Shown: in pieces, positions 379 to 41,114 of the stretch
Position numbering within the stretch: the stretch's first letter is position 1
How the letters are laid out: every line of letters starts with the position of its first letter
Source of the DNA: Escherichia coli
GTDB taxonomy: Bacteria > Pseudomonadota > Gammaproteobacteria > Enterobacterales > Enterobacteriaceae
Length of the DNA stretch: 64,000 nt
NCBI RefSeq assembly: GCF_044324875.1
Contig: NZ_CP172185.1
Strand: one strand, 5' to 3'
The notes under the pieces: model-generated
Database searches by the model: none
Told to the model about the DNA's origin: nothing
Seen by the model: the letters and a program-made list of their open reading frames with translations, nothing else
Made by a program: the position numbers and the translations under genes

Positions 379-431
379 GCTCCATAAACGACAAAACCGC
401 CCGGAGGCGGTTTCACATAAAACATTTTGCA

Positions 432-1079: not shown

Positions 1080-1720
1080 TTGTCGGTATACCTCTCTCGT
1101 TTGCTCAGTTGTTCAGGAATATGGTGCAGCAGCCCGCCGTCGCCGCAGTAAATGGCGGCATGATTCGGCACCGATGAACCAAAACAGCACAGCAGCACGT
1201 CGCCGGGCTGCGCCTCTGTCAGTGCGACACGGTAAAAACCAGTCGCCTCCATATTGTCAAGATAGAGATTCTGACCTGATTTCCACCAGTCATCATGTCG
1301 GTAAAAATCCGGCAAATCGATACCTGCAAGATGATAGGCATCGCGGAACAGCGTGTAACAGTCCGTCACCCCGTGCTCAAAGCGCCGCCCGGTGAGATGC
1401 GGCACACAGCGGAACTTGTGAATCGTCCCCCGGCAGACCAGCCACCACGGCAAATCACTCTGCACCTGCAGCCGCCGGTCGGCCTCACTCAGCCAGGGCA
1501 GACCACCGGGGTGGCTGTGGACCAGCGCCACAATCTCACCCTGCATTTCTGCCTGCAGCCAGTCCTCCGGCGACATCCGGAAATACGCCTCCGGCTCACC
1601 GGAGATATTCACGCAGGGAAAATATCTTTCCCCCTCCGGCGTTCTCACCACGAAGCCGCACGACTCCGCTGGCGCACATCGCCGGGCGTGCGCCAGAATC
1701 GCTGATTCTGTCTCTGTCAT
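977..1720 (-). CDS. K: Tail assembly protein K (JAMM/MPN motif HSHPGG plus NlpC/P60-like C-terminal region)
   Basis: ORF 977..1795; likely start at internal Met (MTETESAILAHARR...); overlaps I start as in lambda. Confidence 0.8.
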   Translation of the reverse strand: MTETESAILAHARRCAPAESCGFVVRTPEGERYFPCVNISGEPEAYFRMSPEDWLQAEMQGEIVALVHSHPGGLPWLSEADRRLQVQSDLPWWLVCRGTIHKFRCVPHLTGRRFEHGVTDCYTLFRDAYHLAGIDLPDFYRHDDWWKSGQNLYLDNMEATGFYRVALTEAQPGDVLLCCFGSSVPNHAAIYCGDGGLLHHIPEQLSKRERYTDKWQRRTHSLWRHRAWHASAFTGICNDLAAASTFV

Positions 1721-1724
1721 GGAA

Positions 1725-2423
1725 TTACTGCGAAAGTTTGTGAATGGAAAGAAAACCGCCAAAGTTGCCGACGTTATTGCGGAACTTACAGCCACTCAGG
1801 CATTTGCTGCATTTATCCTTCGTGATATCGGACGTCGGCTGGTCATATTCATCCGCGACCGCCGGACCGCTATAACCGCACTCATCGCCGCGATAGGTCC
1901 AGGTGCAGGTGTTGGCCAGCATAATACGTCCCGGAAAAACAGCGCCGTCCGTTTCCGTCGGCGTGGCCAGTACAAAGGTCGCGCTGACCGCTGTCAAATC
2001 ACTGCACTGCTCGATGCGCCAGCGGCTGATCACCTCCTGCTCCGGATCGGCGTCACGGTTTCCGTTGACGAAGTTCACCGCATCCAGAAAACGGGCATAA
2101 ACTTTACGCCGGACCACCGTTCCGCCGACCAGACTCTGCATATCTTCCACCATACCGGTGACCATACCGTACAGGTTAGAAACCGTCAGCGTGGGGCGCG
2201 TACTGGTGCCTTTGCCATTCAGTTCAAAACCACTCCCCTGAATGGGATACGGCTGATACTGTCGCCTCTGCCAGGTGACCGGCTCACCTTTTTCGTTCTG
2301 CTCATTACAGAAAAAATAACGTTCTCCACCGACCTCTGTCAGATCGATTTCCCAGAGCACCACGCTGGCCGACTGCTCCGCACGGGTGCATTCATTCAGT
2401 GTTTCCTGCCGGATATCCTGCAT
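1725..2423 (-). CDS. L: Minor tail protein L
   Basis: ORF track, 232 aa, lambda gpL-like (MQDIRQETLNECTRAEQSASVVLWEIDL...). Confidence 0.9.
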   Translation of the reverse strand: MQDIRQETLNECTRAEQSASVVLWEIDLTEVGGERYFFCNEQNEKGEPVTWQRRQYQPYPIQGSGFELNGKGTSTRPTLTVSNLYGMVTGMVEDMQSLVGGTVVRRKVYARFLDAVNFVNGNRDADPEQEVISRWRIEQCSDLTAVSATFVLATPTETDGAVFPGRIMLANTCTWTYRGDECGYSGPAVADEYDQPTSDITKDKCSKCLSGCKFRNNVGNFGGFLSIHKLSQ

Positions 2424-2752
2424 CAGTTCACCACCTGTTCAAACTCTGCGCTGAACTCAACACGCAGCATACTGACCCGCGACGACCATTTTGCGCAGGT
2501 CACCTTTATCTGCCGCCACTCATAAGGCGGCGTCCACAGAAAGGCCTTCCAGCCCCCGTGCTCAGCCAGAAACGACTCCAGCGCCGTGGCCTCCTCACGG
2601 GGGACAGAAAGCGTCACGCTGTACGTTTTCAGGTCGGCATTCAGCCCGGCAGGCGCTCGCTGGGAATGGCCATCACCAAAGCGCACTTTCCTGACGGAAG
2701 GGGCCGAAGCCACATCCATACCGGGTTTCACTTTCCAGCGGAAGGTCTTCAT
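2423..2752 (-). CDS. M: Minor tail protein M
   Basis: ORF track, 109 aa, lambda gpM-like. Confidence 0.9.
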   Translation of the reverse strand: MKTFRWKVKPGMDVASAPSVRKVRFGDGHSQRAPAGLNADLKTYSVTLSVPREEATALESFLAEHGGWKAFLWTPPYEWRQIKVTCAKWSSRVSMLRVEFSAEFEQVVN

Positions 2753-5310: not shown

Positions 5311-5743
5311 ACCGGACTCCTCCTGCGATCCCTTCTGATACTGTCATCAGCATTACGTCATCCTCCGTCATGTCCGCCACATCCGGGGAAGCGGGGATAA
5401 CTTCATTCCCGTCCGGGCCAAAGCGGACACCTCCGGCAAGCCCTGCCGCTTTCTGCATCAGCACATCATCTTCAGGCTCTTCGTCAGCCTCGCGCCGGTT
5501 CAGCAAACTGAAATCCAGCGGATGCATATCCGGATCGCTGAAAAACAGGCTGAGCACGGTGTACGTCAGCCCGGAAAAATGCATATCCAGCAGAACATCA
5601 TGAAAATAATGGGTACTGTAAAAGCGGTGCCAGTCGGCATACTCCGTGGATGACATCCCGGCAAGCATGGCGCGCCAGTCGGGTCGCCCCATCTCGCGCG
5701 CCAGTTTCAGGGCAAAACTCAGCTCACCGTCGAACACTTTCCC
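5303..5743 (-). CDS. T: T segment of tail assembly chaperone G-T fusion (reached by -1 frameshift from G; no independent ATG)
   Basis: ORF 5303..5737 begins VFDGELSF... directly after the slippery heptamer in the -1 frame relative to G. Confidence 0.8.
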   Translation of the reverse strand, partial: GKVFDGELSFALKLAREMGRPDWRAMLAGMSSTEYADWHRFYSTHYFHDVLLDMHFSGLTYTVLSLFFSDPDMHPLDFSLLNRREADEEPEDDVLMQKAAGLAGGVRFGPDGNEVIPASPDVADMTEDDVMLMTVSEGIAGGVRYG

Positions 5744-6141
5744 GCAGAAACAGGCTCTGCAGGCCCGGCGTCCTCTGCCTGGTCAGGGGCATCATTCACC
5801 ACAAACTCAGACATTCCGGACAGACGTAACACCACGTTTTCAGCATGCGAAATTGCCTCCGTGGGCCAGGTGGTAAGCACTTCCTGCTCAATCTGCGTAA
5901 TGGCTTCATTCATGGACAGCAGCTTTGTCTTCTGCGGATGGTTATGCCACAGAGACATCGCCACCAGAAACGCCCCGCCTCTGATAAGATCCTCTACAGA
6001 CACCTGCAGGTTGCCACTGGATTCAGCCTTTTTTTCCTGCTCTTTCAACCAGGCAAGATGCTCAATACGCTGCAGGGCTGACAGTTCAGAAAGCGTGACG
6101 GTCACGCCGTTATGTTCAAATGATTCGGTTTTCAGGAACAT
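5719..6141 (-). CDS. G: Tail assembly chaperone G
   Basis: ORF track, 140 aa, lambda gpG-like, ends ...SAGKCSTVS. Confidence 0.9.
   Translation of the reverse strand: MFLKTESFEHNGVTVTLSELSALQRIEHLAWLKEQEKKAESSGNLQVSVEDLIRGGAFLVAMSLWHNHPQKTKLLSMNEAITQIEQEVLTTWPTEAISHAENVVLRLSGMSEFVVNDAPDQAEDAGPAEPVSAGKCSTVS
5737..5743 (-). promoter_or_regulatory. Programmed -1 ribosomal frameshift slippery site GGGAAAG (G to G-T)
   Basis: Plus strand CTTTCCC = minus strand G GGA AAG, 5 codons before the G stop; -1 frame continues into T. Confidence 0.75.
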
Positions 6142-6156
6142 CGCTGACTCTCCGGA

Positions 6157-6897
6157 TTAACTGGCGGTGACGTTGATTTCTGCAACCGCAGCAAGTTCAC
6201 CATTACCGGATACGACCGGAATGTTGACCCTGCCTGCAGCAACGCCCTTCACGGTGATGGTCATACCACTGACCGACACGGTGGCTTTTGTTTTATCCGC
6301 AGACACCGCACGGAAGCTCTTGTCGGTTGCGCCTTCCGGCTGGAATGCCACGGTCAGCGTGGTGCTCTGCCCTTTCACCACCGAGGTGCTGGCAGGCGTC
6401 ACGGTCATGCCGGTTGCCGCTGTTAGCGTGCTGCGATCTTCTGCCATCGACGGACGTCCCACGTTGGTGACTTTCACCGTGCGGGTGATCACTTCCTTCG
6501 CTGTCACCGCCTTACCGATGCTGCTGACCCAGCCGCGGAACACATCGACCGTGCCGTTCGGGAAGCGGATTTTATAGGCACGGGTATCACCTTCATTAAA
6601 CCACGCCAGCAGCGCCTGCTGCCCCTGCTCTCCGGGCATCCACGCCAGCGTGAAGCTGGTATCTCCGGCGGATTTCTGCCCCTGTCCGGTCGCGGCCCAG
6701 TCCGAATCTTCATCATCGAGATAACTGTCGTCATAGGGCTCAGCGGTCAGTTCGCCGGGCGTCAGGTCTTTAACTTTTGCCAGACGCGACCAGTCAACGT
6801 CTGAAAGCGGGTTCGCATAAGGGTCACCGTTCCCCTTATAAACCCACAGGGTGGTCCCGGCCCCTTTCACCGGTGCCAGAGGATTTGGTGTTGGCAT
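6157..6897 (-). CDS. V: Major tail protein V (Ig-like C-terminal domain)
   Basis: ORF 6157..6927; start at internal Met [22 protein letters not shown]... matching lambda gpV. Confidence 0.9.
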
Positions 6898-6904
6898 ATC
6901 GTCC

Positions 6905-7300
6905 TCACATTTCATAGGTAATGACATAAGTCAGATCGGCTGAACTCCACAGGCCCGCATCATCGTCGCGCCGGTAGTCATAGCCACTGGCCACCATACT
7001 GGTGATCAAATCTGACAGTGCCGGGATATCGCTCATCACCGGATAAATCCGGGACTCCATCCACGAATCCAGCTCTGAATCCGGCACCTGAGCAGGCAGG
7101 AAAACTTCAATATGCAGCTCCGCCTGCCAGGTATCGCTGTCCAGCTCTTCGCCCGTGTATTCAGCGCCGGTGAGATAAACGGCAACTGCCGGAAAATCCG
7201 CCTCATCAAAAACAGCGGGGCGACCATCAAAAAACGTCGCCCCGGTTTCATGCTTCTCCAGTGCATCCAGTACGGCTGTACGGATATCAGTATTTTTCAT
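6905..7300 (-). CDS. U: Tail terminator protein U
   Basis: ORF track, 131 aa, lambda gpU-like. Confidence 0.9.
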
Positions 7301-7872
7301 CGCTTTATCACAATCCTCAGTTGTTGTTTCAGCGCATAGCTCAGTTCTTTTGGCAGACGTTCGCGTCGGATACGGTTAACGTTCTCATCAAAAGCCTGTT
7401 TCAGTGGGGCCGACATCGGAATTTTCACCACCTGAATGGGAAGACGATTACGCTTTTTCCTTCCCTTATCGTCATTGCCCTTCGCATACCTGGCTTCTGG
7501 CAGACGTTGCATAACATGCCAGCGCCCATTATTCAGTCGCTGGATAAATGCCCGCTGATAACGATGCTGACCGGCTTTGAGTATGCTGTTCGGGCGACGT
7601 CCCAGCATCCTGATCCCCAGCTTAATCACAGGAAGATCGCCGCGGTTAACGATAATTTTTGCGTTCGGATTTCTGACCGTAGCCCGTTTCAGTCTGGATC
7701 GCTCTTTAACAAGTTTTCTCGGCACCCGGGTTTCACGGGCGACCTGAGACGAAGACTGATTAATCGCCGTTGTGGCCACGCGGTTAATGGCCATTGCTGA
7801 CGCACCGGGCACCGCCGTTCTGCTGATACGGCTGAGGTTTTCAACGGCCTGCTCAAGACCCTGTATGGCCAT
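7297..7872 (-). CDS. Z: Tail completion protein Z
   Basis: ORF track, 191 aa, lambda gpZ-like. Confidence 0.85.
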   Translation of the reverse strand: MAIQGLEQAVENLSRISRTAVPGASAMAINRVATTAINQSSSQVARETRVPRKLVKERSRLKRATVRNPNAKIIVNRGDLPVIKLGIRMLGRRPNSILKAGQHRYQRAFIQRLNNGRWHVMQRLPEARYAKGNDDKGRKKRNRLPIQVVKIPMSAPLKQAFDENVNRIRRERLPKELSYALKQQLRIVIKR

Positions 7873-7883
7873 ACATCCCCCTT

Positions 7884-8246
7884 TCAGCGGCGACGATTAA
7901 CGGCAGGCGGTACGCCCCGCCCAAGCCAGAGATGACAGCTTCCGCCATCATCCGGCGAAACCCGGTCTATCCAGAAGTTTTCCTCACCGATGGTCAGCGT
8001 GTCTCCACGCCGCAGTTGCCGCACATCATCAGTCCGGACAAACAGAGACGGGCTGGAGCCTTCAACGCGCACGCCCTGTCCGGCATAGCTGATATTTTCA
8101 GGGTCATCAAAAACACCACGTATTACTGCGCCGGGCTGCTCACCGGATGTAATGGTGGCTGACGTTCCCATATGCCCGCGTATCGTTTCATCAGCCCGGG
8201 CAATGGCTGTATCAAAACCGTTATCCCTGATATTAATAACTTTCAT
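7884..8246 (-). CDS. FII: Head-tail connector protein FII
   Basis: ORF 7884..8282; start at internal Met (MKVINIRDNGFDTAIARADETIRG...), C-terminus ...CHLWLGRGVPPAVNRRR as lambda gpFII. Confidence 0.85.
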   Translation of the reverse strand: MKVINIRDNGFDTAIARADETIRGHMGTSATITSGEQPGAVIRGVFDDPENISYAGQGVRVEGSSPSLFVRTDDVRQLRRGDTLTIGEENFWIDRVSPDDGGSCHLWLGRGVPPAVNRRR

Positions 8247-8595
8247 CTGTAACAAGCCCCTCCAGGACAAGTTCCGCAACATTCACTGGATCAACTCTGA
8301 CAGTCATACCTGTAACAACAATCTCCATATCACTGTCATCATGCGGATGTTTTCCCGCCACATGCAGGGTTTTGAGTACACGAACAGTGCTCATTTCATC
8401 CCCGCCAGTGGAGTAGCTATACGTCATCAAATGCCTTTCGTTCTCATCACTCTCCTGGTTTTTGTCCTCTGCTTCCTCTTCCCATTCCGCCACCCGCTGC
8501 GCTATCTCTGCGGCACTCCCGGATATATCCGGCTCACGCCCCAGAATCCGGGCCAGTTCATCAAGCCGTTTCAGATTTTGCTCTTTCGTTGCCAT
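8233..8595 (-). CDS. FI-like DNA packaging/head completion protein (not the lambda FI allele)
   Basis: ORF 8233..8643; start at internal ATG (MATKEQNLKRLDELARILG...); acidic, in the FI position between E and FII. Confidence 0.55.
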   Translation of the reverse strand: MATKEQNLKRLDELARILGREPDISGSAAEIAQRVAEWEEEAEDKNQESDENERHLMTYSYSTGGDEMSTVRVLKTLHVAGKHPHDDSDMEIVVTGMTVRVDPVNVAELVLEGLVTDESY

Positions 8596-8646
8596 ATCAG
8601 GCCTCTGTGAAAAAAGACACGGGGGCATTTCGCCCCCGCTCACGGA

Positions 8647-9675
8647 TTATTTCACCTGTACCACCACAAACTCATCCGGGTCCGGCAACACCATCAGCGG
8701 CGCGGACTGCGTCATGGTAAATTCACGGGCGGGATCCCCCACCGTCAGCCAGTGTTTCGGATAACGGGAAGAGGCCACCACGCCTTCAGACAACGCCTGT
8801 GCATCCTGAATGGCACCGTAACAACGGATCCCATCTGCAGCAGTATTCCCCAGGACCAGCGTGCCGTCTGGCAGATAACGTTTTTCGGTACCGTCCTCTG
8901 CCACATAAGACGTTTTCGCCACCACAATGGCCAGATCACCGTAATACCCTTTGAAAGACACCACCGCCCCCAGGTCTTTCACTGCCGTTTCGAGTTGCGA
9001 ATTTGAACCGCGACGGGTATCCAGTTTTTCGCGGAACAGCTTAAAACCATTCAGCAGACGCCAGACGGTACCGTCCATAATGGCAATATTCACAAGGCCG
9101 CTGGCCTGGTCGCAGTAGAGGTCAATATCATGCGCAGGATCGAACGTGTCACGATCGTGCTCAGACCATTTTTTACCACTGGCCTGCGTAATGTTATTCG
9201 CCGGCGATCTGCCAAAATCGACCTCAATTTTCTCGAACTGGTCTCCTTCCATGGTGTATTTGCCATACAGCACGGCATTTACCGCCTGCATTTCTTCCAC
9301 CTGGACAATCGCGTACTCTTCCTGTTTGAGGTTATCGGTAATGATACGCAGACGGCGGTAAGCCGGATCGTTCAGTTGAGCCGGATCTTCACCAGGAAGG
9401 CGCTCAACCGCCTGCCGGGAATTAAATTCGTGTTTCGGCTTGACGTAGCCCGGACGCAAGACGCGGGTTTCACCACCACGATGACGCAGCACTTTTCCTT
9501 CAACAACCGGGGAGACATAGGCCGCCACCGGCGTTTTTCCGGTAATTTTGTCCAGCATCACCTCTTCGGTATGGAAATTCACCGTACGACGGAAAAACAG
9601 CTCCAGAAACAGCGCACGAAATTTCACTTTTTGTTCGGTATAACCGAGTAACTGGCGGGTCGTAAACAATCCCAT
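8647..9675 (-). CDS. E: Major capsid protein E
   Basis: ORF track, 342 aa; shares motifs with lambda gpE (RRGSNS.LETAVKDLG, TGDPAREFTM.QSAPLM). Confidence 0.9.
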   Translation of the reverse strand: MGLFTTRQLLGYTEQKVKFRALFLELFFRRTVNFHTEEVMLDKITGKTPVAAYVSPVVEGKVLRHRGGETRVLRPGYVKPKHEFNSRQAVERLPGEDPAQLNDPAYRRLRIITDNLKQEEYAIVQVEEMQAVNAVLYGKYTMEGDQFEKIEVDFGRSPANNITQASGKKWSEHDRDTFDPAHDIDLYCDQASGLVNIAIMDGTVWRLLNGFKLFREKLDTRRGSNSQLETAVKDLGAVVSFKGYYGDLAIVVAKTSYVAEDGTEKRYLPDGTLVLGNTAADGIRCYGAIQDAQALSEGVVASSRYPKHWLTVGDPAREFTMTQSAPLMVLPDPDEFVVVQVK

Positions 9676-9732
9676 AAATCAGTTCCTTTCATTCTGAAAT
9701 CAGTCAGGCCACCGCGGTGGCCTGATAACGTG

Positions 9733-10080
9733 TTACGGCAGCGCCGCGTGACTCAGGGCACTCCCGGCAAAGGCGTTGGCCTTTTTGTGTTCATCCACAC
9801 TGTCAGGCCAGCGGATTGCCTCCGTCGCAAAAGTCCCCGACTTGTAATACGTCAGCACCGTCTCTGTGCCTTCAAGCGGCAGTACCAGTATGCCAACCGC
9901 ACCTCCGGCTTTCTGTCCGTCCCAGACCACCAGTTTCCCGGTGGCTTCATCCAGCATCAGGGGCGTCAGTGCCGGTGTTGCCGAGGAAATCCCGCTGCTG
10001 CCTGTGGCGGTGTGAGCCGGATCATTACCGGCAAAAATACGTACTTCCGCACGCTGTTCAGTGATGGTTTTCGTTACCAT
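9733..10080 (-). CDS. D: Head decoration protein D
   Basis: ORF track, 115 aa; DPAHTAT...TPLMLD...GILV...YKSGTF motifs as in lambda gpD. Confidence 0.85.
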   Translation of the reverse strand: MVTKTITEQRAEVRIFAGNDPAHTATGSSGISSATPALTPLMLDEATGKLVVWDGQKAGGAVGILVLPLEGTETVLTYYKSGTFATEAIRWPDSVDEHKKANAFAGSALSHAALP

Positions 10081-10116
10081 ATTGTCAAAACCTCATATTG
10101 ATGGTCAGCACTGACT

Positions 10117-29723: not shown

Positions 29724-30726
29724 CGCGCCAATCTGTGCAATCCAGAGCTTCGAAGGTGCGGCCCCGTTCTTCCGGGTCCAGCGGTCCGAATAAACCTCCC
29801 CCATGAGTTCCCACAGCTTCCAGGCTGTTTCCGTCGCTGATAAATCCGTTTTCACGTTCCCACTGCTCACGTGCTGCCCGAATTTCCTGAACTGCCCGTG
29901 ATGCGGTGCCACCTGGTGCTGCTGCATGGTTCACCCCCTTGCTGACTGGTTTAACCTGCGCCCTGACGTGATTTACGTGACGGGCGAATTTCTGCTCCCA
30001 CTGAACCTGTGTGAACACTTTCCCCTCCGCCATCCAGTAATCCCGGAAGGCGGCAAGTTCAGCAGGTGTAAATTCCGGTTCCGGCAAAGCCGCTCCCCAC
30101 AACGCAGCCCGCCGTCGAAAATCCAGCGACGGATGCCAGCCATCGGCCATCGGAAATTTCCCGATGGGTTCACTCATGCCGTCCAGATATCCGGGCTCCG
30201 TTGCCTGCGATGGCGTACCGTTCGACTCACTGGTCGGAGCACTCTCGCGCACGCGCGCGTTATGTGTGGGGTTTAATTCTTTATCTGTATCTTTATTAGT
30301 TGCCTTTGTGTTTGCGTCATGTTCAAACACCACACCAATATTTGTTTGAACACCTGTTAAATCTCTCTCTTGTTTTGTTTGAACATCTGCTTCCTTTCTG
30401 CTTCTTCTGGCCTGAACAGATGCTTTTCCGGCGGCTGATTTTTTGGTTAATTTTTCCCTGACTGATGCCAGATCTTCCTCAATCCGAAGATGCACCCATT
30501 CATCGCCGTTATCGTGAAAAAACTCCCGCAAGGATGGCTCCACATCAGCCCATCGCTCATTAGTCAGACGGGCAATTTTTGCCAGCCTGTTTTTAGGTAT
30601 TGGCTTTCCTGTTTGCCAGTAATTGAACATCAGCAACAAATATGCACCGTGCTCCTCTGCTGATAAATGCATGGTGTCAGCCAGGTAATCAGCGATGTAC
30701 AGTTGCATGTATGGTAATGCGGCCAT
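29716..30726 (-). CDS. Replication initiator/replisome organiser-like protein (DUF1376/YdaU-like N-terminus, DnaT-like C-terminal region)
   Basis: ORF track, 336 aa; N-terminal YMQLYIADYLADTMHLSAEEHGAYLLLMFNYW; position between the YdaT-like and P-like genes. Confidence 0.6.
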   Translation of the reverse strand: MAALPYMQLYIADYLADTMHLSAEEHGAYLLLMFNYWQTGKPIPKNRLAKIARLTNERWADVEPSLREFFHDNGDEWVHLRIEEDLASVREKLTKKSAAGKASVQARRSRKEADVQTKQERDLTGVQTNIGVVFEHDANTKATNKDTDKELNPTHNARVRESAPTSESNGTPSQATEPGYLDGMSEPIGKFPMADGWHPSLDFRRRAALWGAALPEPEFTPAELAAFRDYWMAEGKVFTQVQWEQKFARHVNHVRAQVKPVSKGVNHAAAPGGTASRAVQEIRAAREQWERENGFISDGNSLEAVGTHGGGLFGPLDPEERGRTFEALDCTDWRDD

Positions 30727-30796
30727 AATTGCCTCTTCTGATACCGAATTCCTTAATCACGTACTACCGAAAGCGATCCGGTATAACTATTGCCAG

Positions 30797-31222
30797 TCAG
30801 TGCATCACCACAGCATTACCCGCCGGGCCACCACGATTCATCTGATTGAAACCGGCGATTGCCACTGCGATAAAATCATCAGCGTCTCTCACCAGCCGTT
30901 CTCGTGTCTCCAGCAGCTCCCTGAAATAGGCTGAGCTGTGGCTACGCATTCTGGCCACCAGCAAAGGCGGCATTGCCTTTTCGATCGCTGGTAGTAACGC
31001 CTGAATTTTTACAACCGCATCAGGGGTGTCTTTCTCCACCCAGCGGAAAATTTTCTGGGTATTACGGGCCAGGGCTTCGGGATGGCTGTCGTCATACAGT
31101 TCCGGGAACGTCATACCCAGCTCAAAATAAGCCCGGGTTATTTCAGCTGCCGGAACTTTTTCGCCATCAGGACGCGCCCAGGCATTCATCGCCATGCGGA
31201 TGTGTTCATGCTTGATTTTCAT
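30797..31222 (-). CDS. YdaT-family protein (CII-position regulator of Rac-like prophages)
   Basis: ORF track, 141 aa; begins MKIKHEHI and ends ...NRGGPAGNAVVMH, as I recall for E. coli Rac YdaT. Confidence 0.55.
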   Translation of the reverse strand: MKIKHEHIRMAMNAWARPDGEKVPAAEITRAYFELGMTFPELYDDSHPEALARNTQKIFRWVEKDTPDAVVKIQALLPAIEKAMPPLLVARMRSHSSAYFRELLETRERLVRDADDFIAVAIAGFNQMNRGGPAGNAVVMH

Positions 31223-31487
31223 GAATCAAGCTCCTAGTAAGTGGTTGTGTTAACGTTTTGGTATCTTCCAGCTCGGGCCAAATATTCATCCAATCAAAAG
31301 GCCTTAGTTGCTGACGTGTAACTTCACCATTACTGGCTCGCTCAATAAGGACACATAACGATGCCCCTAACATTTGACCTTTACTCAATGCCTTTCTTAG
31401 ATAACCGATGCTAGTACCACACTCACATGCAAACATACGCTGTTCATCTGACGAAAGAGAATTGAGAAATATTCTTAATTCTTCCAT
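31206..31487 (-). CDS. Cro-like HTH regulator (YdaS family)
   Basis: ORF track, 93 aa; divergent from the repressor across an operator-containing region; HTH CGTSIGYLRKALSKGQ. Confidence 0.6.
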   Translation of the reverse strand: MEELRIFLNSLSSDEQRMFACECGTSIGYLRKALSKGQMLGASLCVLIERASNGEVTRQQLRPFDWMNIWPELEDTKTLTQPLTRSLIHENQA

Positions 31488-31517
31488 AGCTACTCCTTAG
31501 TAAACACAGCAAAAGAA

Positions 31518-31593
31518 TACCCATAGGTAAACAAAAGTCAATACCCTTGGGTTGTTTACCTTGCGGTAATCGCATCTATTATTTACCTATGGA
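31518..31593. promoter_or_regulatory. Right operator region: three TACCC-N2-GGGTA-type sites between the cro-like gene and the repressor
   Basis: TACCCATAGGTA (31518..31529), TACCCTTGGGTT (31542..31553), TTACCTATGGA (31583..31593, overlapping the repressor ATG). Confidence 0.5.
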
Positions 31594-32008
31594 CAAATAT
31601 GAATTTAGACGACAACAACTCATCAAAATTCGTGATGAGAAATGCGATGGTAAAGCGGTTAACGTGGCCAGAAAGATCGGTCGCGAGCCTTCTTATGTAT
31701 CAAGAATGTTGTACCCAGAGGGGAAAAAAGGAAAAAAACGGATCGCTGATGATATGGTGGAGATTATAGAAGAGTCCTTTGGGTTACCCCGGGGATGGAT
31801 GGATGGTATCGTTTCATCATCAACGAACACAGCCTCCAATTATGAAACAAGGGTTCTAACGCCACGACAACGTATTTTTTTAGATCTCTTAGACGAACTG
31901 CCTGAAAGTGAAGCGGATAACTTATTAAAAACTCTTGAAGAGAAAAAACAGTATTACAATATGATCTACGAAGAAATCCGTAAAAAGAAAGCACAAAACG
32001 CATCATAA
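31589..32008 (+). CDS. Prophage repressor (HTH, XRE-type; no S24 peptidase domain)
   Basis: ORF 31547..32008 with internal ATG at 31589 (MDKYEFRRQQL...); HTH AVNVARKIGREPSYVSRML. Confidence 0.7.
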   Translation: MDKYEFRRQQLIKIRDEKCDGKAVNVARKIGREPSYVSRMLYPEGKKGKKRIADDMVEIIEESFGLPRGWMDGIVSSSTNTASNYETRVLTPRQRIFLDLLDELPESEADNLLKTLEEKKQYYNMIYEEIRKKKAQNAS

Positions 32009-32053
32009 CTCACCAAACAACCAGTCACCAGTTAAGATACATCAAAAAAAAAT

Positions 32054-32090
32054 TACCCATGGGTATTTACTTTTTGGATACCCATGGGTA
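32054..32090. promoter_or_regulatory. Left operator/promoter: two perfect 12-bp palindromes TACCCATGGGTA
   Basis: Palindromes at 32054..32065 and 32079..32090, 25 bp centre to centre; TTTACT-17 bp-TATACT hexamers overlap them. Confidence 0.5.
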
Positions 32091-32283
32091 TACTTTTTTT
32101 CATACCAACCCACCCCGCCCCACAGAACGCAGGGCAATACTTCGAGTTACCAGGCAGTGGTCAGGGGTTAAGTAGCCAGCCCGAGGCGTATGAACATGAC
32201 GGCAGGGTTTAACTTTAACTATGCAGCAGGTTTTTGTTCCGCTACCCCGGCGTTAAGGGGAAACAGCACTGAGAGAAATCAGT

Positions 32284-32502
32284 ATGCAGAAGCGAGAACC
32301 CGTCATCATCTCGCCAGACTATACCGATGATGAACTTTATGAGTGGATGCGCCGGAAAATTCAGGCTGCGCAGGACCTGAAGTGGGCCAATGAAGCCAGG
32401 GCTAAGGAGGCTGAAAATCTGTCAGCTCTGGAGCAGGATATCACCAGGCTGGAAAAAGCAGCGGCATTAAGCATTGCCAGAATGATTACATACCCGCGTT
32501 AA
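32284..32502 (+). CDS. Hypothetical early-left protein (72 aa)
   Basis: ORF track; first ORF after the left operator; not Arg-rich, so not N-like. Confidence 0.4.
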   Translation: MQKREPVIISPDYTDDELYEWMRRKIQAAQDLKWANEARAKEAENLSALEQDITRLEKAAALSIARMITYPR

Positions 32503-32751
32503 CAGCTAATCAACAAGGCCAGGGTTGGTAATTAATGACTTCTCCACGGGTGAGGTGGAGTGCGTGCGCCGGACACAGACTGGTTAACGTCGCCTGGAGG
32601 CACCAGGCACCGCATCAACAAAGTTCACTTCGGTGATGAAAGGTAAGAGAAAATGTTGAATGTAGCTATTGAAAACCAGTACGGGTGGAATTATAGTGCA
32701 CCTGCACCTCATAAAGCGGGTGCCGGGATTGCTACCCCGACGTTCACTAAC

Positions 32752-32785
32752 GCGCATAACCGCGCCCAGGCGGTTTTTTTATGCG
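32752..32785 (+). terminator. Candidate intrinsic terminator/regulatory hairpin in the early-left leader
   Basis: CCGC-GCCCAG-GCGG followed by TTTTTTT, nested in a 7-bp outer stem CGCATAA/TTATGCG. Confidence 0.3.
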
Positions 32786-32946
32786 TAATGCACAGCCACA
32801 TTCAGATTATGGTGGGGCGTGCAGGGCAGCCGCAAGGCTGGCCGGGTTCGTTAGTGACCGGTTGTAGCAACCCTGTACGTCTCACCACCCATGAGATTGC
32901 TACCTCCGGTGGTGAGTTAATCAAATTCACTAACGAGGCTGCCATC

Positions 32947-33501
32947 ATGGCTACTATCCCTACCCTTTCTCACCCTGACATAACCATCAAAAACGGTCGC
33001 GCTGTCACTACGTCTATTGCGATCGCAGAGTTCTTTGGCAAGCGCCATGAACGAGTGCTGGATAAAATTCGCAATCTGGACTGTTCAGCAAAATTCACTG
33101 AGCACAATTTTGTGTCGAGCAAATACACCGACTCAACCGGGCGCAAACTCCCTATGTACCAAATCACCAAAAACGGCTTCGTTTTCCTGGTGATGGGCTT
33201 CACGGGCAAAAAGGCCGCTGCATTCAAGGAAGCCTACATTGCCGAGTTCGACCGCATGGAGGAAGAACTGCGCCGGAATAACACCACACCCGCTGACAAA
33301 ATAATCCCGGGTGATGGCCGCACCCTGGTTATCCGCTTCGACGAACACGGCTACATCAAATTCACCGAAACCGTTCCTGATGGCGCACTGGTCTGTACTC
33401 TGGATACTTTCCGTTTTTATCTGGAAAAGCAGGGATGGACTCTCATAAACCGGGGCGCAATTAAAAATATGACCGTCGAGCAGTTGCTGAGTATTAAATA
33501 G
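32947..33501 (+). CDS. rha: Rha-family phage regulatory protein
   Basis: ORF 32653..33501, start at internal ATG (MATIPTLSHPDITIKNGRAVTTSIAIAEFFGKRHERVLDKIRNL...); motif TKNGFVFLVMGFTGKKAAAFKEAYIAEFDRME. Confidence 0.65.
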   Translation: MATIPTLSHPDITIKNGRAVTTSIAIAEFFGKRHERVLDKIRNLDCSAKFTEHNFVSSKYTDSTGRKLPMYQITKNGFVFLVMGFTGKKAAAFKEAYIAEFDRMEEELRRNNTTPADKIIPGDGRTLVIRFDEHGYIKFTETVPDGALVCTLDTFRFYLEKQGWTLINRGAIKNMTVEQLLSIK

Positions 33502-33546
33502 TTTTCTGGAATTTCCTTCATATCACAAATTATTAAGGAGATTATT

Positions 33547-33768
33547 ATGATTGCTCATCACTTCGGAACCGATGAAATACCACGCCAGTGCGTCACTCCC
33601 GGCGATTACGTTATTTACGAAGGCCGGACATATATCGCCTCGGCAAACAATATCGAAAAGCAAAAACTTTATATCCGTGATTTCACTACAAAAACATGCA
33701 TTACTGACCGCATGATTAAAGTCTTCCTCGGTCGTGATGGTTTACCTGTAAAGGCGGTGGCATGGTGA
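33547..33768 (+). CDS. Hypothetical protein (73 aa)
   Basis: ORF track only. Confidence 0.35.
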
Positions 33769-33887
33769 GCTGTAATAAATAACTGACCCAATACGACATT
33801 CAGCTTAATAAATACATAAGGGTCGATTCTTATATGCCAGCAATGGCAGGGATTCGCACAACCTTAAAACAGCAATGAGGTTTATCA

Positions 33888-35936
33888 ATGAGCACTGATA
33901 AAGAAACTTTTGCGCTATATTGCGAAGCTAAAAATGACAAAGTCAGAAAACGCCTTGGGATTAAAGGTGGTTTTTACTGGACTACAGCAAAAAAATTATC
34001 TGTTGCCATCTCCCGCTGCATTACCGCAATGGATGATAACGATTATGATGAAGACGACTTTAAAAAACCTGTTCGCGTCCATTTGCCCGTTGTTGATGAC
34101 CTTCCACCGGAAGGCGTGTTTGATACCGAATTCTGTAACCGGTATGAAAAAGGCGGCGAAGATGGCATCACAATGATATTTATCGCGCCTCCGCCATCCG
34201 CGCAGGACAAACCAGCCAGCACTGACAACACCAATGTTAATGGCGAAGACATGACTGAGATTGAGGAGAATATGCTTCTGCCGGTTTCAGGTCAGATTCT
34301 GCCTGTTCGCTGGCTGGCGCAACACGGCGGCGAAAAACCAGTAACGCACGTTTCGCGGGATGAACTGCGCTCATTACATAACGCACAGGAAGAAAAACTT
34401 CCCGCCGTTACCGCGCTGGCCATCTCAAATAAAGCAGCGCAACTCGAACCGCTGGAGATTCGGGATTTGTACAAACTGGTGCGGGACACTGACAAAGTTT
34501 TTCCCGCTCCCGTAAATTCAGACCTGGGACTGATGACCTCCTTCATCGAAGCATACCTGGACGCTGACTACACTGATCGTGGTCTGCTTACAAAAGAGTG
34601 GATGAAAGGAAATCGTGTTTCTCGCATCAGTCGCACACCATCCGGCGCTAACGCTGGCGGCGGTATTCTTACCGATCGCGGCGAAGGTTTTGTGCATGAT
34701 AATGCGTCAATGGCATTCGATGTTGCTACAGGAAAACTGGCTCGTTCGATGGATGTGGATATTTACAGCATGCATCCTTCACATACCAGACGTGTTAACG
34801 AAATTATCGCAGAAAATGATCCCTGTTTCTCCGTCTTCCTTAAGGCTTTTCTGAACATGCCAGGCGGGATGGATTATTCCCGCGCCATCGTGGTTGCCTC
34901 CGTGAAAGAAGCACCGGTTGGTATAGAGGCTATGCCCCACCGCGTCACCGAATACCTGAATAAAGTGCTGACCGAAACCGATCATGCCAACCCTGATCCG
35001 GAAATCGTGGATATTGCCTGCGGTCGTTCCTCTGCACCAATGCCGCAGCGTGTAACAGAAGAAGGAAAACAGGATGATGAAAAAAAACCGCAACCGTCTG
35101 GCGCAATGGCAGATGAACAGGCAACTACTAAAACAGTGGAACCGGATACAACTGAACATCATCCGGACACGCAGACGCTGGATGCTCGGCCGCAGGTGAA
35201 TTCTGTTGATGCGAAATATCAGAAACTGCGGGCAGAACTCCATGAAGCCCGGAAAAACATTCCGCCCCAAAATCCTGTCGACGAAGACAAATTGCTGGCA
35301 ACCTCTCGCGGAGAATTTGCTGAAGGGATTAGCGACCAGAATGATCCGAAATGGGTGAAGGGGATTGAAACCCGCGATTCTGTGAACCAGAATCAGCAAG
35401 AAACGGAACAGAACGACCAGAAAGCGGAACAAAACAGCCCAAATGTGCAACGAAAAGAGCCAAAAGCGAAACAATCCGAACCAGTAGCGCAACAGGAACC
35501 GGAAAAAGTCTGCACCGTCTGCGGTCAGAGCGGTGTCGACAACTGTCCTGATTGTGGCGTGGTGATGGGCGACGCAACATACCAGGAAATGTTCGATGAA
35601 GAGAATCAGCCTGAAGTTCAGGAAAATGATCCAGAGGAAATGGAAGGCTCTGCGCATCAGAACAAGGAGAACTCTGGCGGCAATCAGCATCATGCCAGCG
35701 ATAGTGAAACTGGCGAGACGGCAAATCCCTTAATTAAGATAACCAGTCATCACAAATATAAGTCCACAAGCAAAACGTGGTATCACCTGATGATCGACCT
35801 TGAAACAATGGGAACCAACACCAATGCACCCATAGTAGTTATTGGTGCGGTTTTCTTCGACCCGGAAACAGGGGAAATCGGGCCGGTATTTTATATCGTT
35901 ATCAGCCTGACTGACGCAATGAATACAGGGGCTGTT
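33888..35936 (+). pseudogene. RecE/exonuclease VIII-like protein, N-terminal 683 codons; gene interrupted by IS629-like element
   Basis: ORF ends ...[14 protein letters not shown]...DAMNTGAV and takes its stop codon TGA from the first three bases of the IS; the reading frame resumes in phase after the IS. Confidence 0.7.
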
Positions 35937-35990
35937 TGAACCGCCCCGGGAATCCTGGAGACTAAACTCCCTGAGAAAGAGGTAAACAGA

Positions 35991-36317
35991 ATGACTAAAA
36001 ATACTCGTTTTTCCCCCGAAGTCCGTCAGAGGGCGATTCGTATGGTTCTGGAAAGTCAGGGCGAATATGACTCACAGTGGGCGGCAATTTGTTCCATTGC
36101 CCCAAAGATTGGCTGTACACCGGAGACTCTGCGTGTCTGGGTACGCCAGCATGAGCGGGATACCGGAGGCGGTGATGGCGGGCTCACCACCGCTGAACGT
36201 CAGCGTCTGAAAGAGCTGGAACGTGAAAATCGTGAACTGCGCCGCAGTAACGATATCCTTCGCCAGGCTTCCGCTTATTTTGCGAAGGCGGAGTTCGACC
36301 GCCTCTGGAAAAAGTGA
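35991..36317 (+). CDS. IS3-family transposase OrfA
   Basis: ORF track, 108 aa; HTH and leucine zipper. Confidence 0.9.
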
Positions 36318-37204
36318 TGCCACTGCTGGATAAGCTGCGTAAGCTGTACGGGGTCGGACCGGTATGCAGTGAACTACATATTGCCCCGTCAACGTATTAC
36401 CACTGTCAGCAACAGCGACATCATCCGGATAAACGCAGTGCCCGTGCGCAGCGCGATGACTGGCTGAAGAAAGAGATACTGCGCGTATACGATGGGAATC
36501 ATCAGGTATACGGTGTGCGTAAAGTCTGGCGTCAGTTGTTACGGGAAGGAATCAGGGTAGCCAGATGTACAGTGGCGCGCCTCATGGCGGTTATGGGACT
36601 TGCCGGTGTTCTCCGGGGTAAAAAGGTCCGCACTACCGTCAGCCGGAAAGCCGTTGCCGCAGGCGACCGCGTAAACCGTCAGTTTGTGGCAGAACGTCCT
36701 GACCAGTTGTGGGTGGCTGATTTTACTTACGTCAGCACATGGCAGGGGGTCGTCTATGTGGCGTTCATCATTGATGTGTTTGCCGGATACATCGTGGGGT
36801 GGCGGGTCTCATCGTCTATGGAAACGACATTCGTGCTGGATGCTCTGGAGCAGGCGTTATGGGCCCGTCGACCGTCCGGCACAGTCCATCACAGTGATAA
36901 AGGTTCTCAGTATGTATCGCTGGCCTACACACAGCGGCTTAAGGAAGCCGGATTACTGGCATCAACAGGAAGTACTGGTGACTCGTATGACAACGCGATG
37001 GCGGAGAGCATCAATGGCCTTTACAAAGCGGAGGTAATACACCGTAAGAGCTGGAAAAACCGGACAGAAGTGGAGCTGGCCACACTCACGTGGGTGGACT
37101 GGTATAACAATCGACGATTGCTGGAAAGGCTGGGCCATATCCCACCGGCAGAAGCAGAAAAAGCTTATTATGCTTCCATCGGAAACGATGATCTGGCAGC
37201 CTGA
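36314..37204 (+). CDS. IS3-family transposase OrfB (DDE catalytic region; normally expressed as OrfAB by -1 frameshift)
   Basis: ORF track, 296 aa; overlaps orfA by 4 nt. Confidence 0.9.
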
Positions 37205-37246
37205 GTTCACAGATAAAACACTCTCCAGGAAACCCGGGGCGGTTCA

Positions 37247-37654
37247 GTTCCTGATGGTGGCACCATCGAATGGTGGCTGAAGCAGTCCAGCGAAGCCAGA
37301 GCTGCCATTTTAACTGACCAGGTAAAAATGAAAGATGCCCTTTTGCGTTTTCGGGAATTCGTCAATGAACACTCCGATGAAAAATTCGTTCAGGTGTGGG
37401 GTAATGGCGCAACGTTCGATAACGCAATTTTGCGCACCTCATACGAACGTCTGGACATCCCCTGTCCGTGGCATTACAGCAACGATCGTGATGTACGCAC
37501 AATCGTTGAGATGGGGAAAATCACAGACTTCAATGCCAGAAGCGTAATTCCATTCGAAGGCGTGCGCCATAATGCTCTGGATGACGCTCTTCACCAGGCA
37601 AAATACGTAACAGCCGCTATACAAAAACTGATCCCGAATCAGGCTGATTTTTAA
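37247..37654 (+). pseudogene. C-terminal fragment of the IS-disrupted exonuclease (DEDDh 3'-5' exonuclease domain remainder)
   Basis: In-frame continuation VPDGGTIEWWLKQ...; motifs WGNGATFDNAIL and VRHNALDDALH complete the DLETMG motif found before the IS. Confidence 0.7.
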
Positions 37655-37706
37655 TGTTCAACAGTCGCCAGTTGTCGTTGCTATTCTGCAACTGGCGCGT
37701 TCCGGA

Positions 37707-37985
37707 GTGATAGCCATGAGCGAACAGTACCTGATAACGCTCGATGAGTGGAAACCAAAACGGTTCAGTCTCCCAATAACAAACACTACCCTGGTGAAAT
37801 ATGGAAAACTAGGATACATCGTTCCAAGACCACAAAAAATTCGTGGGCGTTGGCTGATAGATCGCCGGGCAGTATTTGTTGGGCCAGGTGAAACAGGAAT
37901 TGCGCCGGAAATTCATACTGGCGATGATGATGCACTGAAGGAGATTTTAACTCATGTCACCGAGGCCACGAAAAAACAGCACTGA
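37707..37985 (+). CDS. xis: Excisionase (Xis-like)
   Basis: ORF track, 92 aa; YLITLDEW...VKYGKLGYIVPRPQKIRGRWLIDRRAV resembles lambda Xis; 3' end overlaps the int start. Confidence 0.6.
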   Translation: MIAMSEQYLITLDEWKPKRFSLPITNTTLVKYGKLGYIVPRPQKIRGRWLIDRRAVFVGPGETGIAPEIHTGDDDALKEILTHVTEATKKQH

Positions 37986-39072
37986 CGTAGCCGGTCTTTA
38001 CGAAAAGTTTGATCGCAGAACTGGCAGGGTTTACTACCAGTATAAAAACCCTGTGACTGGAAAATTTCACGGTCTCGGAACAGACAAATGTAAGGCAGAA
38101 AAAATCGCTTCCACAGCCAATCAGCGAATAGCTGCAGCAGAAGCTGAATATTACATGCGCAAAATTGATGAAAGTCCGTCAGCAACAAAACGTCGGGGTA
38201 TCAGATTAAAGGCATGGGTTGAACGATATCTGAAAATACAGGACACACGACTAAAAAATGGAGATATTGCAGCTACAACCCACAAAGAAAAAGCCCGAAT
38301 GGCTGCATACCTGGTTTCCCGTCTGGGAAACCACCCATTGAAAGAACTGGAAGTAAGAGACTTTGCATTGATACTGGATGAGTGGCTGGATAAAGACATG
38401 GTCAGCACGGCGAGAGTAAACCGTGGATTATGGGTTGATATTTATAAAGAAGCACAGCATGCAGGGGAAGTTCCTCCCGGATGGAATCCTCCGGAGGCTA
38501 CCCGTAAACCGATCCCTAAAGTAAGCAGAGCCAGACTCACCCTGGAAGACTGGCAAAAAATTTACAATGCAACGCCTGAAAGGCACTTTATTCGTAACGC
38601 AATGCTTCTTGCAATTGTTACTGGTCAGCGCCGTGATGACATTTGCCACATGCGTTTTTCAGATGTGTGGAACGAACACTTGCATATCACCCAGGGAAAA
38701 ACCGGAATGCGTCTGGCGTTACCGCTTACACTCCGCTGTGATGCCATTGGGATAACGTTAAAAGAAGTTATTGATGGATGCCGAGACAGAATATTAAGTC
38801 CATACCTAATCCATAGTCGGCACCAGAAACAACCAAAACCGATGAGTAAAGACAACCTGAGCGACTACTTTGCCAAAGCACGGGATCTGGCTGGGATAAT
38901 TCCACCAGCAGGAAAAACTCCTCCCACATTTCATGAACAACGCTCTCTATCAGAACGGCTGTACCGTACGCAGGGTATCGATACAAAAACATTACTGGGA
39001 CATAAAATCCAGGCAACCACCGATCGCTATAACGATACCCGAGGTCAGGAATGGGTTAAGTTGGTTATTTGA
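37954..39072 (+). CDS. int: Tyrosine integrase (lambda Int family)
   Basis: ORF track, 372 aa; C-terminal LLGHKIQATTDRYNDTRG with catalytic Tyr; terminal position next to host DNA. Confidence 0.9.
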   Translation: MSPRPRKNSTDVAGLYEKFDRRTGRVYYQYKNPVTGKFHGLGTDKCKAEKIASTANQRIAAAEAEYYMRKIDESPSATKRRGIRLKAWVERYLKIQDTRLKNGDIAATTHKEKARMAAYLVSRLGNHPLKELEVRDFALILDEWLDKDMVSTARVNRGLWVDIYKEAQHAGEVPPGWNPPEATRKPIPKVSRARLTLEDWQKIYNATPERHFIRNAMLLAIVTGQRRDDICHMRFSDVWNEHLHITQGKTGMRLALPLTLRCDAIGITLKEVIDGCRDRILSPYLIHSRHQKQPKPMSKDNLSDYFAKARDLAGIIPPAGKTPPTFHEQRSLSERLYRTQGIDTKTLLGHKIQATTDRYNDTRGQEWVKLVI

Positions 39073-39238
39073 CAAACACCATATGGAATATCCGTCACCA
39101 TCTCAGGAAAAAAGTGTTGTAAAATGCGTGGCCTTGTTTTGGGGAAAAGTTTTGGAGAGATTTTGGAGAAAGGAAAAAATTGAATAAATTCAAAATCCTG
39201 AAAGTGCTCCACCTTATGAATAAAAAGGTGGAACTCGA
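39073..39238 (+). other. Prophage-host junction (att core somewhere here) with 3'-terminal potB codons (...KVLHLMNKKVELE-stop) ending in ATGA overlap with the potC start
   Basis: Frame ending TGA at 39240..39242 is open back to about 39123 but the potB body is absent, replaced by int. Confidence 0.4.
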
Positions 39239-40033
39239 ATGATCGGTCGACTGCTTCGCGGCGGTTTTATGACCGCTATCTACGCGTACCTGTATATCCC
39301 AATCATTATTTTGATTGTGAACTCCTTTAACAGCTCGCGCTTTGGCATCAACTGGCAGGGTTTTACCACCAAATGGTATAGCCTGCTGATGAACAACGAC
39401 AGCCTGTTACAGGCAGCGCAGCATTCACTAACAATGGCGGTGTTTTCGGCGACGTTTGCTACGCTTATCGGTTCACTGACGGCAGTTGCGCTGTACCGTT
39501 ATCGCTTTCGTGGTAAGCCGTTCGTTAGCGGAATGCTGTTTGTGGTGATGATGTCACCAGATATCGTGATGGCGATTTCGCTGCTGGTGCTGTTTATGCT
39601 GCTGGGTATTCAGCTTGGCTTCTGGTCGCTGCTGTTCTCGCATATCACCTTCTGCCTGCCATTTGTGGTGGTGACAGTGTATTCGCGCCTGAAAGGTTTT
39701 GACGTGCGAATGCTGGAAGCGGCGAAAGATCTCGGTGCCAGCGAATTTACCATTCTGCGAAAAATCATTCTGCCACTGGCAATGCCAGCGGTAGCGGCGG
39801 GCTGGGTGTTAAGCTTTACCCTGTCGATGGACGATGTAGTAGTTTCTTCGTTCGTCACCGGACCAAGCTATGAAATTCTGCCGTTAAAAATTTATTCGAT
39901 GGTCAAAGTCGGCGTATCGCCGGAAGTTAACGCGCTGGCAACCATATTACTGGTGCTGTCGCTGGTGATGGTAATTGCCAGCCAGCTTATTGCTCGTGAT
40001 AAAACGAAAGGTAACACAGGGGACGTTAAATGA
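39239..40033 (+). CDS. potC: Spermidine/putrescine ABC transporter permease PotC
   Basis: ORF track, 264 aa, matches E. coli PotC. Confidence 0.95.
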   Translation: MIGRLLRGGFMTAIYAYLYIPIIILIVNSFNSSRFGINWQGFTTKWYSLLMNNDSLLQAAQHSLTMAVFSATFATLIGSLTAVALYRYRFRGKPFVSGMLFVVMMSPDIVMAISLLVLFMLLGIQLGFWSLLFSHITFCLPFVVVTVYSRLKGFDVRMLEAAKDLGASEFTILRKIILPLAMPAVAAGWVLSFTLSMDDVVVSSFVTGPSYEILPLKIYSMVKVGVSPEVNALATILLVLSLVMVIASQLIARDKTKGNTGDVK

Positions 40034-41076
40034 AAAAATGGTCACGCCACCTGCTCGCGGCGGGTGCTCTGGCACTGGGCATGAGCGCCGCTCACGCCGA
40101 TGACAACAACACGCTGTATTTTTACAACTGGACCGAGTACGTGCCACCAGGACTGCTTGAACAGTTCACCAAAGAAACCGGTATTAAGGTTATCTATTCG
40201 ACTTACGAGTCGAACGAAACCATGTATGCCAAGCTGAAAACGTACAAAGACGGTGCCTATGACCTGGTGGTTCCTTCAACCTATTACGTCGATAAAATGC
40301 GTAAAGAAGGGATGATCCAGAAGATCGACAAGTCGAAGTTAAGCAATTTCAGCAACCTCGATCCAGACATGCTCAATAAGCCGTTTGACCCGAATAACGA
40401 CTACTCCATTCCGTATATCTGGGGTGCGACGGCGATTGGTGTTAATGGTGATGCGGTGGATCCCAAATCCGTTACCAGCTGGGCCGATCTGTGGAAGCCT
40501 GAGTACAAAGGCAGCCTGCTGCTGACCGACGATGCCCGTGAAGTGTTCCAGATGGCACTGCGTAAGCTGGGCTACTCCGGTAACACCACCGATCCGAAAG
40601 AGATTGAAGCTGCATACAACGAGCTGAAAAAACTGATGCCAAACGTCGCGGCGTTTAACTCCGATAACCCGGCGAACCCGTATATGGAAGGCGAAGTTAA
40701 CCTCGGCATGATCTGGAACGGTTCTGCTTTCGTTGCACGCCAGGCGGGTACGCCAATTGATGTGGTGTGGCCGAAAGAAGGCGGCATTTTCTGGATGGAC
40801 AGCCTGGCGATCCCGGCAAATGCCAAAAACAAAGAAGGCGCGCTGAAATTGATCAACTTCCTGCTGCGCCCAGATGTGGCAAAACAGGTTGCTGAAACTA
40901 TCGGTTATCCAACGCCAAACCTTGCGGCGCGTAAGCTGTTAAGTCCGGAAGTGGCGAACGATAAAACGCTCTACCCGGATGCTGAAACCATTAAAAATGG
41001 TGAATGGCAGAATGACGTTGGCGCAGCCAGCAGCATTTATGAAGAGTATTATCAGAAGCTGAAAGCAGGACGTTAA
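40030..41076 (+). CDS. potD: Spermidine/putrescine ABC transporter periplasmic binding protein PotD
   Basis: ORF track, 348 aa, signal peptide, matches E. coli PotD. Confidence 0.95.
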   Translation: MKKWSRHLLAAGALALGMSAAHADDNNTLYFYNWTEYVPPGLLEQFTKETGIKVIYSTYESNETMYAKLKTYKDGAYDLVVPSTYYVDKMRKEGMIQKIDKSKLSNFSNLDPDMLNKPFDPNNDYSIPYIWGATAIGVNGDAVDPKSVTSWADLWKPEYKGSLLLTDDAREVFQMALRKLGYSGNTTDPKEIEAAYNELKKLMPNVAAFNSDNPANPYMEGEVNLGMIWNGSAFVARQAGTPIDVVWPKEGGIFWMDSLAIPANAKNKEGALKLINFLLRPDVAKQVAETIGYPTPNLAARKLLSPEVANDKTLYPDAETIKNGEWQNDVGAASSIYEEYYQKLKAGR

Positions 41077-41085
41077 TTCAGCAAG

Positions 41086-41114
41086 CGGGCGGTGGTATTA
41101 CCGCCCGTTTTTTA
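41086..41114 (+). terminator. Intrinsic terminator after potD
   Basis: CGGGCGGT-GGTATT-ACCGCCCG hairpin followed by TTTTTT, 10 nt after the potD stop. Confidence 0.65.

Follow-up and report, generated by a model that had tools for sequence, protein, structure and literature searches.

We identify positions 39073 to 39245 of the analysed stretch of Escherichia coli DNA (64 kb, in the following called the window) with high confidence as an attR-type junction, comprising P arm, core and B' sequence, of a lambda-like prophage that was integrated at the end codons of potB by Int-mediated site-specific recombination. A prophage of about 40–50 kb splits the potABCD operon into potAB and potCD.

The window contains the right-hand 39.2 kb of the lambdoid prophage (positions 1..39230, no strand assigned); its left end, including J, the tail fibres and attL, lies beyond the window start. 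The int gene encodes a lambda-type tyrosine integrase (37954..39072, plus strand) and is transcribed toward potC, with its end at 39072 as originally predicted. In a pairwise alignment with the empty potB-potC locus of K-12, DNA similarity begins exactly at 39217, and in a megablast search of 5,426 complete E. coli genomes the empty loci likewise match the window from 39217 onward only. Everything left of this position is phage DNA unrelated to potB, including the 144-bp P arm between the int stop and the core (39073..39216, plus strand), which has no similarity to the empty K-12 locus. The segment does match potB, from 39217, and the proposed location of a lambdoid prophage in the extreme 3' end of potB is confirmed: the window holds the int-proximal junction, which is of the attR type (phage arm, core, host potC). 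The open frame that ends at the TGA at 39240-39242 reads ...KVLHLMNKKVELE, or in the other renderings ...NAWPCFGEKFWRDFGERKKLNKFKILKVLHLMNKKVELE and ...KFKILKVLHLMNKKVELE, before its stop, which overlaps the potC ATG as ATGA. These codons and the overlap had been transcribed accurately; the resemblance to PotB, whose native C-terminus in K-12 is ...YWRASRLLNKKVELE, is however restricted to the last seven residues NKKVELE, and the preceding KVLHLM is phage-arm sequence that is in frame by chance. A potB-like frame arising altogether by chance is rejected, since the core and the downstream sequence are identical to the host locus.

What remains of native potB on this side is only GAA CTC GAA TGA (E-L-E-stop; 39231..39242, plus strand), identical to the K-12 potB end. 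It is followed by intact potC (39239..40033, plus strand; 264 aa, Pfam BPD_transp_1) and intact potD (40030..41076, plus strand; 348 aa, SBP_bac_8 and related families). The encoded PotC is full length and shows no amino-acid difference to PotC of K-12, in agreement with the original description of potC as intact. The core pattern occurs a single time in the 64-kb window; therefore the other junction, the potB body and potA are absent from the window, as had been stated for potA and the potB body.

The anatomy of the att site emerges from a comparison of the window with the empty K-12 site, the lysogens EcPNK006 and O104:H4 2009EL-2071, and two attP-type contigs from IMG/VR, both of which carry a P arm-core-P' arm arrangement. 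Since the two related lysogens are complete, they also provide the other prophage end, and the comparison defines a 14-bp core TGAATAARAAGGTG (39217..39230, plus strand), with the pattern TGAATAA(A/G)AAGGTG common to attP, attB, attL and attR. The core thus falls within the interval of 39.1–39.24 kb to which it had been assigned. Left of the core, attR and attP share ...GCTCCACCTTA, while attB and attL share ...CTCGTCTGC; the sequence on its right is GAACTCGAATGATCGG in attR and attB (where potB ends and potC starts) and AGCGAATTAGATGATTAA in attL and attP. At core position 8 the two attP and the two attL copies all have G, whereas the attR copies are divided, six having A and four having G. 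The empty site of K-12 has G at this position, and the empty sites of several strains carry exactly the A found in the window. The 160 bp of P arm are identical in 11 of 12 attR and attP copies from different hosts, with three substitutions in the remaining copy. Since the attR base varies although the P arms are nearly identical, we take it to be derived from the host, which places the strand exchange, probably, within the 7-bp TGAATAA (39217-39223).

This candidate exchange region is bracketed by two predicted core-type half-sites, the phage-derived TCCACCTT on the left (39208..39215, plus strand) and AAGGTGGA on the right (39225..39232, plus strand), the latter being also the Shine-Dalgarno sequence of potC, 7-14 nt upstream of the ATG. 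Both form a perfect 8-bp inverted repeat with a 9-nt spacer, an arrangement that would be expected of core-type Int sites on either side of an overlap. The motif TTTTGGRGA is found three times in tandem within 33 bp of the P arm (39137-39145, 39150-39158 and 39161-39169, plus strand) and nowhere else in the 64 kb. The P' arm adds two further repeats of the form TTTT[GC]GAGA (attP positions +130 and +144) and an IHF-consensus site. The arm repeats are presumed to be binding sites for the N-terminal domain of Int. No RNA family of Rfam matches at the junction.

The integrase itself has an arm-binding domain (Arm-DNA-bind_1, PF09003, 4e-21) and a catalytic domain (Phage_integrase, PF00589, 9e-18), and aligns end to end with the structure of lambda Int (1z1b, E-value 2e-53). 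The catalytic residues are conserved, with TGQRRDD, HEQRSL, LLGHK and DRY corresponding to TGQRVGD, HELRSL, LLGHK and QY of lambda. The exact protein occurs in 357 blocks of the assembly collection; in all eight loci that were read it adjoins potC, and none of these eight has the host backbone of the window. The start of int is overlapped by the excisionase gene xis (37716..37985, plus strand; Pfam Exc, PF07825, E-value 7.8e-05), whose counterpart at the same position is annotated as excisionase (270 nt) in EcPNK006 and O104:H4. Among GenBank phages, only two records contain this int. The presence of potC sequence in both points to prophages extracted together with host flank, not to genomes of free phages.

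The proposed course of integration is as follows. Int-mediated recombination would join phage attP and bacterial attB at the common core, with the exchange in TGAATAA between the inverted core-type Int sites. The reaction would be aided by the arm-type repeats, three in P and two in P', and by the IHF-consensus site in P', and Xis would assist excision. At the far junction the P' arm, which starts with a diverged potB end, rebuilds potB in the related lysogens as ...NKKVSELDD followed by a stop codon; at attR potC keeps its start codon and, inside core and B', its Shine-Dalgarno sequence. Transcription of potCD in the lysogen would then come only from weak read-through out of the xis-int region or from weak promoter-like sequences, and translation of potC would proceed without coupling to potB, probably at a reduced level. 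Upon induction of the prophage, read-through into potCD may become strong.

The far junction was read in the related lysogens. The prophage between potB and potC measures about 41 kb in EcPNK006 and 48.6 kb in O104:H4 2009EL-2071, and attL of both consists of the potB body, the core, and then phage sequence. Here the phage codons AGC GAA TTA GAT GAT TAA (S-E-L-D-D-stop) replace the native potB end codons, displacing just three codons and the stop (GAA CTC GAA TGA). The phage thereby supplies substitute end codons and potB stays full length: PotB of the lysogens has 287 aa and ends with NKKVSELDD, compared to 285 aa ending with NKKVELE in the native protein, and is annotated by RefSeq as ordinary PotB. 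A truncated potB pseudogene was considered and rejected, as the phage provides the gene end. An intact potB at the other junction, which the original prediction had set against an insertion, is indeed found in the related lysogens; the insertion stands nevertheless, because the phage replaces the potB end codons. The phage segment GAATTAGATGATTAA resembles the host sequence GAACTCGAATGATCGG, which gives the start of P' the appearance of a diverged potB end. Over its first 18 nt (AGCGAATTAGATGATTAA) the P' arm likewise resembles a diverged version of the host potB end plus potC start (GAACTCGAATGATCGG). The substitute potB end AARAAGGTGAGCGAATTAGATGAT has no match in 100,044 species-representative genomes. 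Since the left junction of the window's own prophage lies outside the stretch, potAB at its far end are deduced from the other lysogens; the expected arrangement is potA, then potB ending with ...CTGAATAAGAAGGTG joined to AGCGAATTAGATGATTAA.

With 41 and 48.6 kb of prophage between potB and potC in the complete lysogens, potCD have lost their connection to the potA promoter, and the original claim that a prophage separates potCD from their native promoter holds. potC retains its own start codon and Shine-Dalgarno sequence (AAGGTGG), the latter within the core and B' site. A scan for sigma-70 consensus promoters found none on the plus strand from 37600 to the potD end (about 41080), and a relaxed scan of the int-potC-potD region gave two weak matches (8 of 12 positions) compared to 1.4 expected, that is, background density. 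No terminator-like site was found on the plus strand between int and potC, for which reason read-through into potCD is proposed; the operon terminator is present 3' of potD as a terminator-like hairpin with a T-run (41083-41110). In the attR RNA the ribosome-binding site of potC is covered by an 8-bp hairpin that the two half-sites form by pairing (−11.1 kcal/mol, z −3.3), while the native leader has a weaker structure (−8.1 kcal/mol, z +0.4) that is normally opened by ribosomes finishing potB. An internal promoter of potABCD known from genomic SELEX maps to the potA/potB side (PMC3946193); hence it stays with potAB and cannot serve potCD in the lysogen. Judged from sequence, read-through from int or an internal promoter, as originally suggested, would be a reasonable source of potCD expression, and the levels of PotCD, and hence spermidine uptake by PotABCD, are probably reduced until induction or excision of the prophage. 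Our literature search returned no report on potCD expression in such lysogens. A change in potCB in a lambda lysogen (PMC2147009) was set aside as irrelevant, since lambda sits at its own site.

A stricter reading of these features is that potCD are effectively silenced in the lysogen, the promoter and the coupling being lost and the ribosome-binding site buried in the half-site hairpin, and that the prophage works as a switch by which spermidine uptake through PotABCD is reversibly turned off. The plus strand without a consensus promoter from 37600 to potD, the hairpin that covers AAGGUGGA more stably than the native leader structure, and a report that calls the operon disrupted (PMC9453080) all point this way. 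We nonetheless consider silencing doubtful: any transcription of int reads through, as no terminator separates int from potC; the inverted repeat is fully accounted for as core-binding sites of Int; and neither potC nor potD is damaged at any of the 11 lysogen loci examined. Still more is claimed by a scenario in which the insertion is a reversible switch on polyamine uptake in about a quarter of E. coli, with potCD orphaned, the potC ribosome-binding site blocked by the hairpin and PotABCD off in lysogens, and with expression restored, or even strongly elevated, from an anti-terminated early-left xis-int transcript on induction or excision. This scenario we regard as improbable. The opposite proposal, that the conserved P arm holds a dedicated outward promoter which restores potCD expression and so parallels the compensation of the potB end by P', would agree with an A/T-rich arm that is nearly invariant across hosts and with the clear preservation of potB and of the ribosome-binding site of potC by the phage. 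The arm also offers a weak −35/−10 pair at 39153-39180 (TGGAGA-16-AAAAAT, 8 of 12 positions). However, this pair coincides in part with the arm-type Int sites, by which the conservation is already accounted for, no sequence passes the consensus threshold, and the weak matches do not exceed the background noted above; such a promoter appears very improbable to us.

The junction might also be a fossil, with a defective prophage locked in place, a non-functional att site and a permanently fixed operon split. Here an IS3 element (35937-37246) that splits a recE-like exonuclease gene of the prophage, an IS21-family element at 25999-27800, and an IS-rich host backbone with an IS1 in ycfZ speak for decay. 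On the other side, intact versions of int, xis, the P arm, the arm repeats and the core are present and do not differ from those of other genomes, and the genes interrupted by IS elements are dispensable for excision. We therefore hold a fossil junction to be rather unlikely, and retain the attR junction of an integrated lambda-like prophage, with potCD probably weakly served, as the preferred reading.

The gene content of the prophage is that of a lambdoid phage. The head and tail genes, through which the left window edge cuts within the tail region, are about 94% identical to those of relatives of phage lambda, and the early region is 99.8% identical to potC-adjacent prophages of other genomes. 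Genes for a Q antiterminator, an endolysin, spanins, a RecE-like exonuclease and a Rha/Ash protein are present, as are two tRNA genes. We found no open reading frame of the size of stxA between Q (22218-22892) and the endolysin gene (19099-19632), and the reading frames in this interval either match PHROGs of unknown function or have no match. A Stx-converting phage is rejected, as the region between Q with its tRNAs and the lysis cassette is without stx. The two phage tRNA genes (Arg-tct and Met-cat, 20978-21131) lie downstream of Q, in the tRNA/stx position of Stx phages, with no toxin genes after them.

The IS3 element consists of orfA and orfB and contains an ALIL frameshift pseudoknot (Rfam, 36272-36388). 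It splits the gene for the RecE-like exonuclease/3'-5' exoribonuclease into reading frames at 33888-35939 and 37328-37654, whereas intact homologues have 817 aa; the two flanks join with a 3-bp overlap, which is consistent with a simple insertion. The truncated exonuclease gave zero hits in the exact-protein look-up. The IS21-family element lies in the early/nin region and encodes IstA (340 aa, with an rve domain) and IstB (260 aa). Within the 5' part of the open reading frame of the Rha/Ash family (32653-33501), Rfam models recognize isrK (32704-32780) and the C4 antisense RNA (32805-32892), a segment that represents an antisense immunity module of the P1/P7 type within a lambdoid prophage.

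Compared to phage lambda, Int shows the same arm-binding and catalytic domains at about 45% identity, and the att region is organized likewise, with xis overlapping int, putative inverted core-type sites around a short candidate exchange region, arm-type repeats in both arms and an IHF consensus, all read here from sequence. The core TGAATAARAAGGTG and the arm site TTTTGGRGA differ in sequence from those of lambda, and the arm layout is 3 + 2. Also the target differs: lambda attB is located in the intergenic region between gal and bio, whereas the target here lies within an operon, at the potB 3' end. A closer parallel is provided by prophages that carry a substitute end for the gene they enter. 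One of them is e14, which resides at the 3' end of icd and carries a substitute end for this gene. Another is Rac in ttcA, where the phage also supplies the substitute gene end (PMC4632033). Both share with the present case a diverged target-gene end in attP and a target gene that keeps its full length but encodes a slightly changed C-terminus (here VELE-stop becomes VSELDD-stop). The present case differs in that the target, potB, lies inside an operon of four genes and its stop codon overlaps the potC start. For this reason the insertion also uncouples potCD from the promoter and from translational coupling.

Among prophages of E. coli at the potB/potC site, the present copy has the same insertion point and the same type of integrase adjoining potC. 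It differs from the Stx phages at this site in that stx is missing from the interval between Q and the lysis genes, and from other prophages at this site in being interrupted by elements of the IS3 and IS21 families and in residing in a backbone that has no counterpart among complete E. coli genomes. The int-potC junction, counted at a coverage of at least 80% of a 601-bp probe, is present in 1395 of the 5426 complete E. coli genomes (about 26%). A long, full-length attL is found in 960 complete genomes, and in further genomes the P' arm matches over its first ~32 bp only. Strain 12089 (NZ_CP159875.1) matches the window only from about 39109; it has no int, though a portion of the P arm is there together with the core and potC. 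This locus may be a remnant junction or reflect another insertion upstream.

The naming of potC, in the original prediction, as an insertion site for lambdoid prophages including Stx prophages agrees with the literature (PMC8065619, PMC9453080, PMC11052207, PMC9997748, PMC4632033). As one of the Stx-phage sites, potC was first reported by Steyert et al. in 2012 (PMC8065619). Stx2e and Stx1 prophages at potC have been described (PMC8705337, PMC10675304), as have the BP-4795-like PP10 and Stx2a, Stx2d, Stx2e and Stx2g phages (among PMC11052207, PMC9453080, PMC8705337 and PMC8065619), a PP_potB prophage in clade 8 of O157:H7 (PMC9997748) and the phi-CFT073-potB prophage (PMC4632033). Both the site and the disruption of the operon are hence part of the genomics literature on STEC and UPEC, and the potB/potC prophage junction is an ordinary, already described feature, here resolved to base level. 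For the base-level anatomy (core, exchange region, arm repeats, substitute PotB end, potC ribosome-binding site in the core) our literature search found no description; this anatomy is what the lambda paradigm predicts.

We note that the result is of use for annotation, as it marks the prophage end and flags the operon split. In strains of this kind potB is not a pseudogene, and a potC without its partners is an effect of integration, not of gene loss. As a physiological consequence, spermidine uptake by PotABCD may be reduced by this prophage in a quarter of E. coli strains.

The chromosomal backbone beside potCD shows further features. The region 43100-62000 has at most 99.1% identity to any of the 5,426 complete E. 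coli genomes (megablast), and the arrangement of IS elements at 35500-43500 was not matched among the same genomes. This identity ceiling, together with three IS families (IS3, IS1 and IS21) in 64 kb, suggests a divergent, IS-rich lineage, perhaps a Shigella-like one. Just downstream of potD-ymfA, an IS1 (42280-43047) is inserted in ycfZ, a TPM-domain gene, with a 9-bp target duplication (TGTACATCG), and truncates the gene product to 230 aa. An open reading frame of 321 aa at 62099-63064 has the Plug domain of TonB-dependent receptors as its sole domain. By its position, which we take from the gene order of K-12 to be that of fhuE (~729 aa), it probably represents a truncated or frameshifted fhuE.
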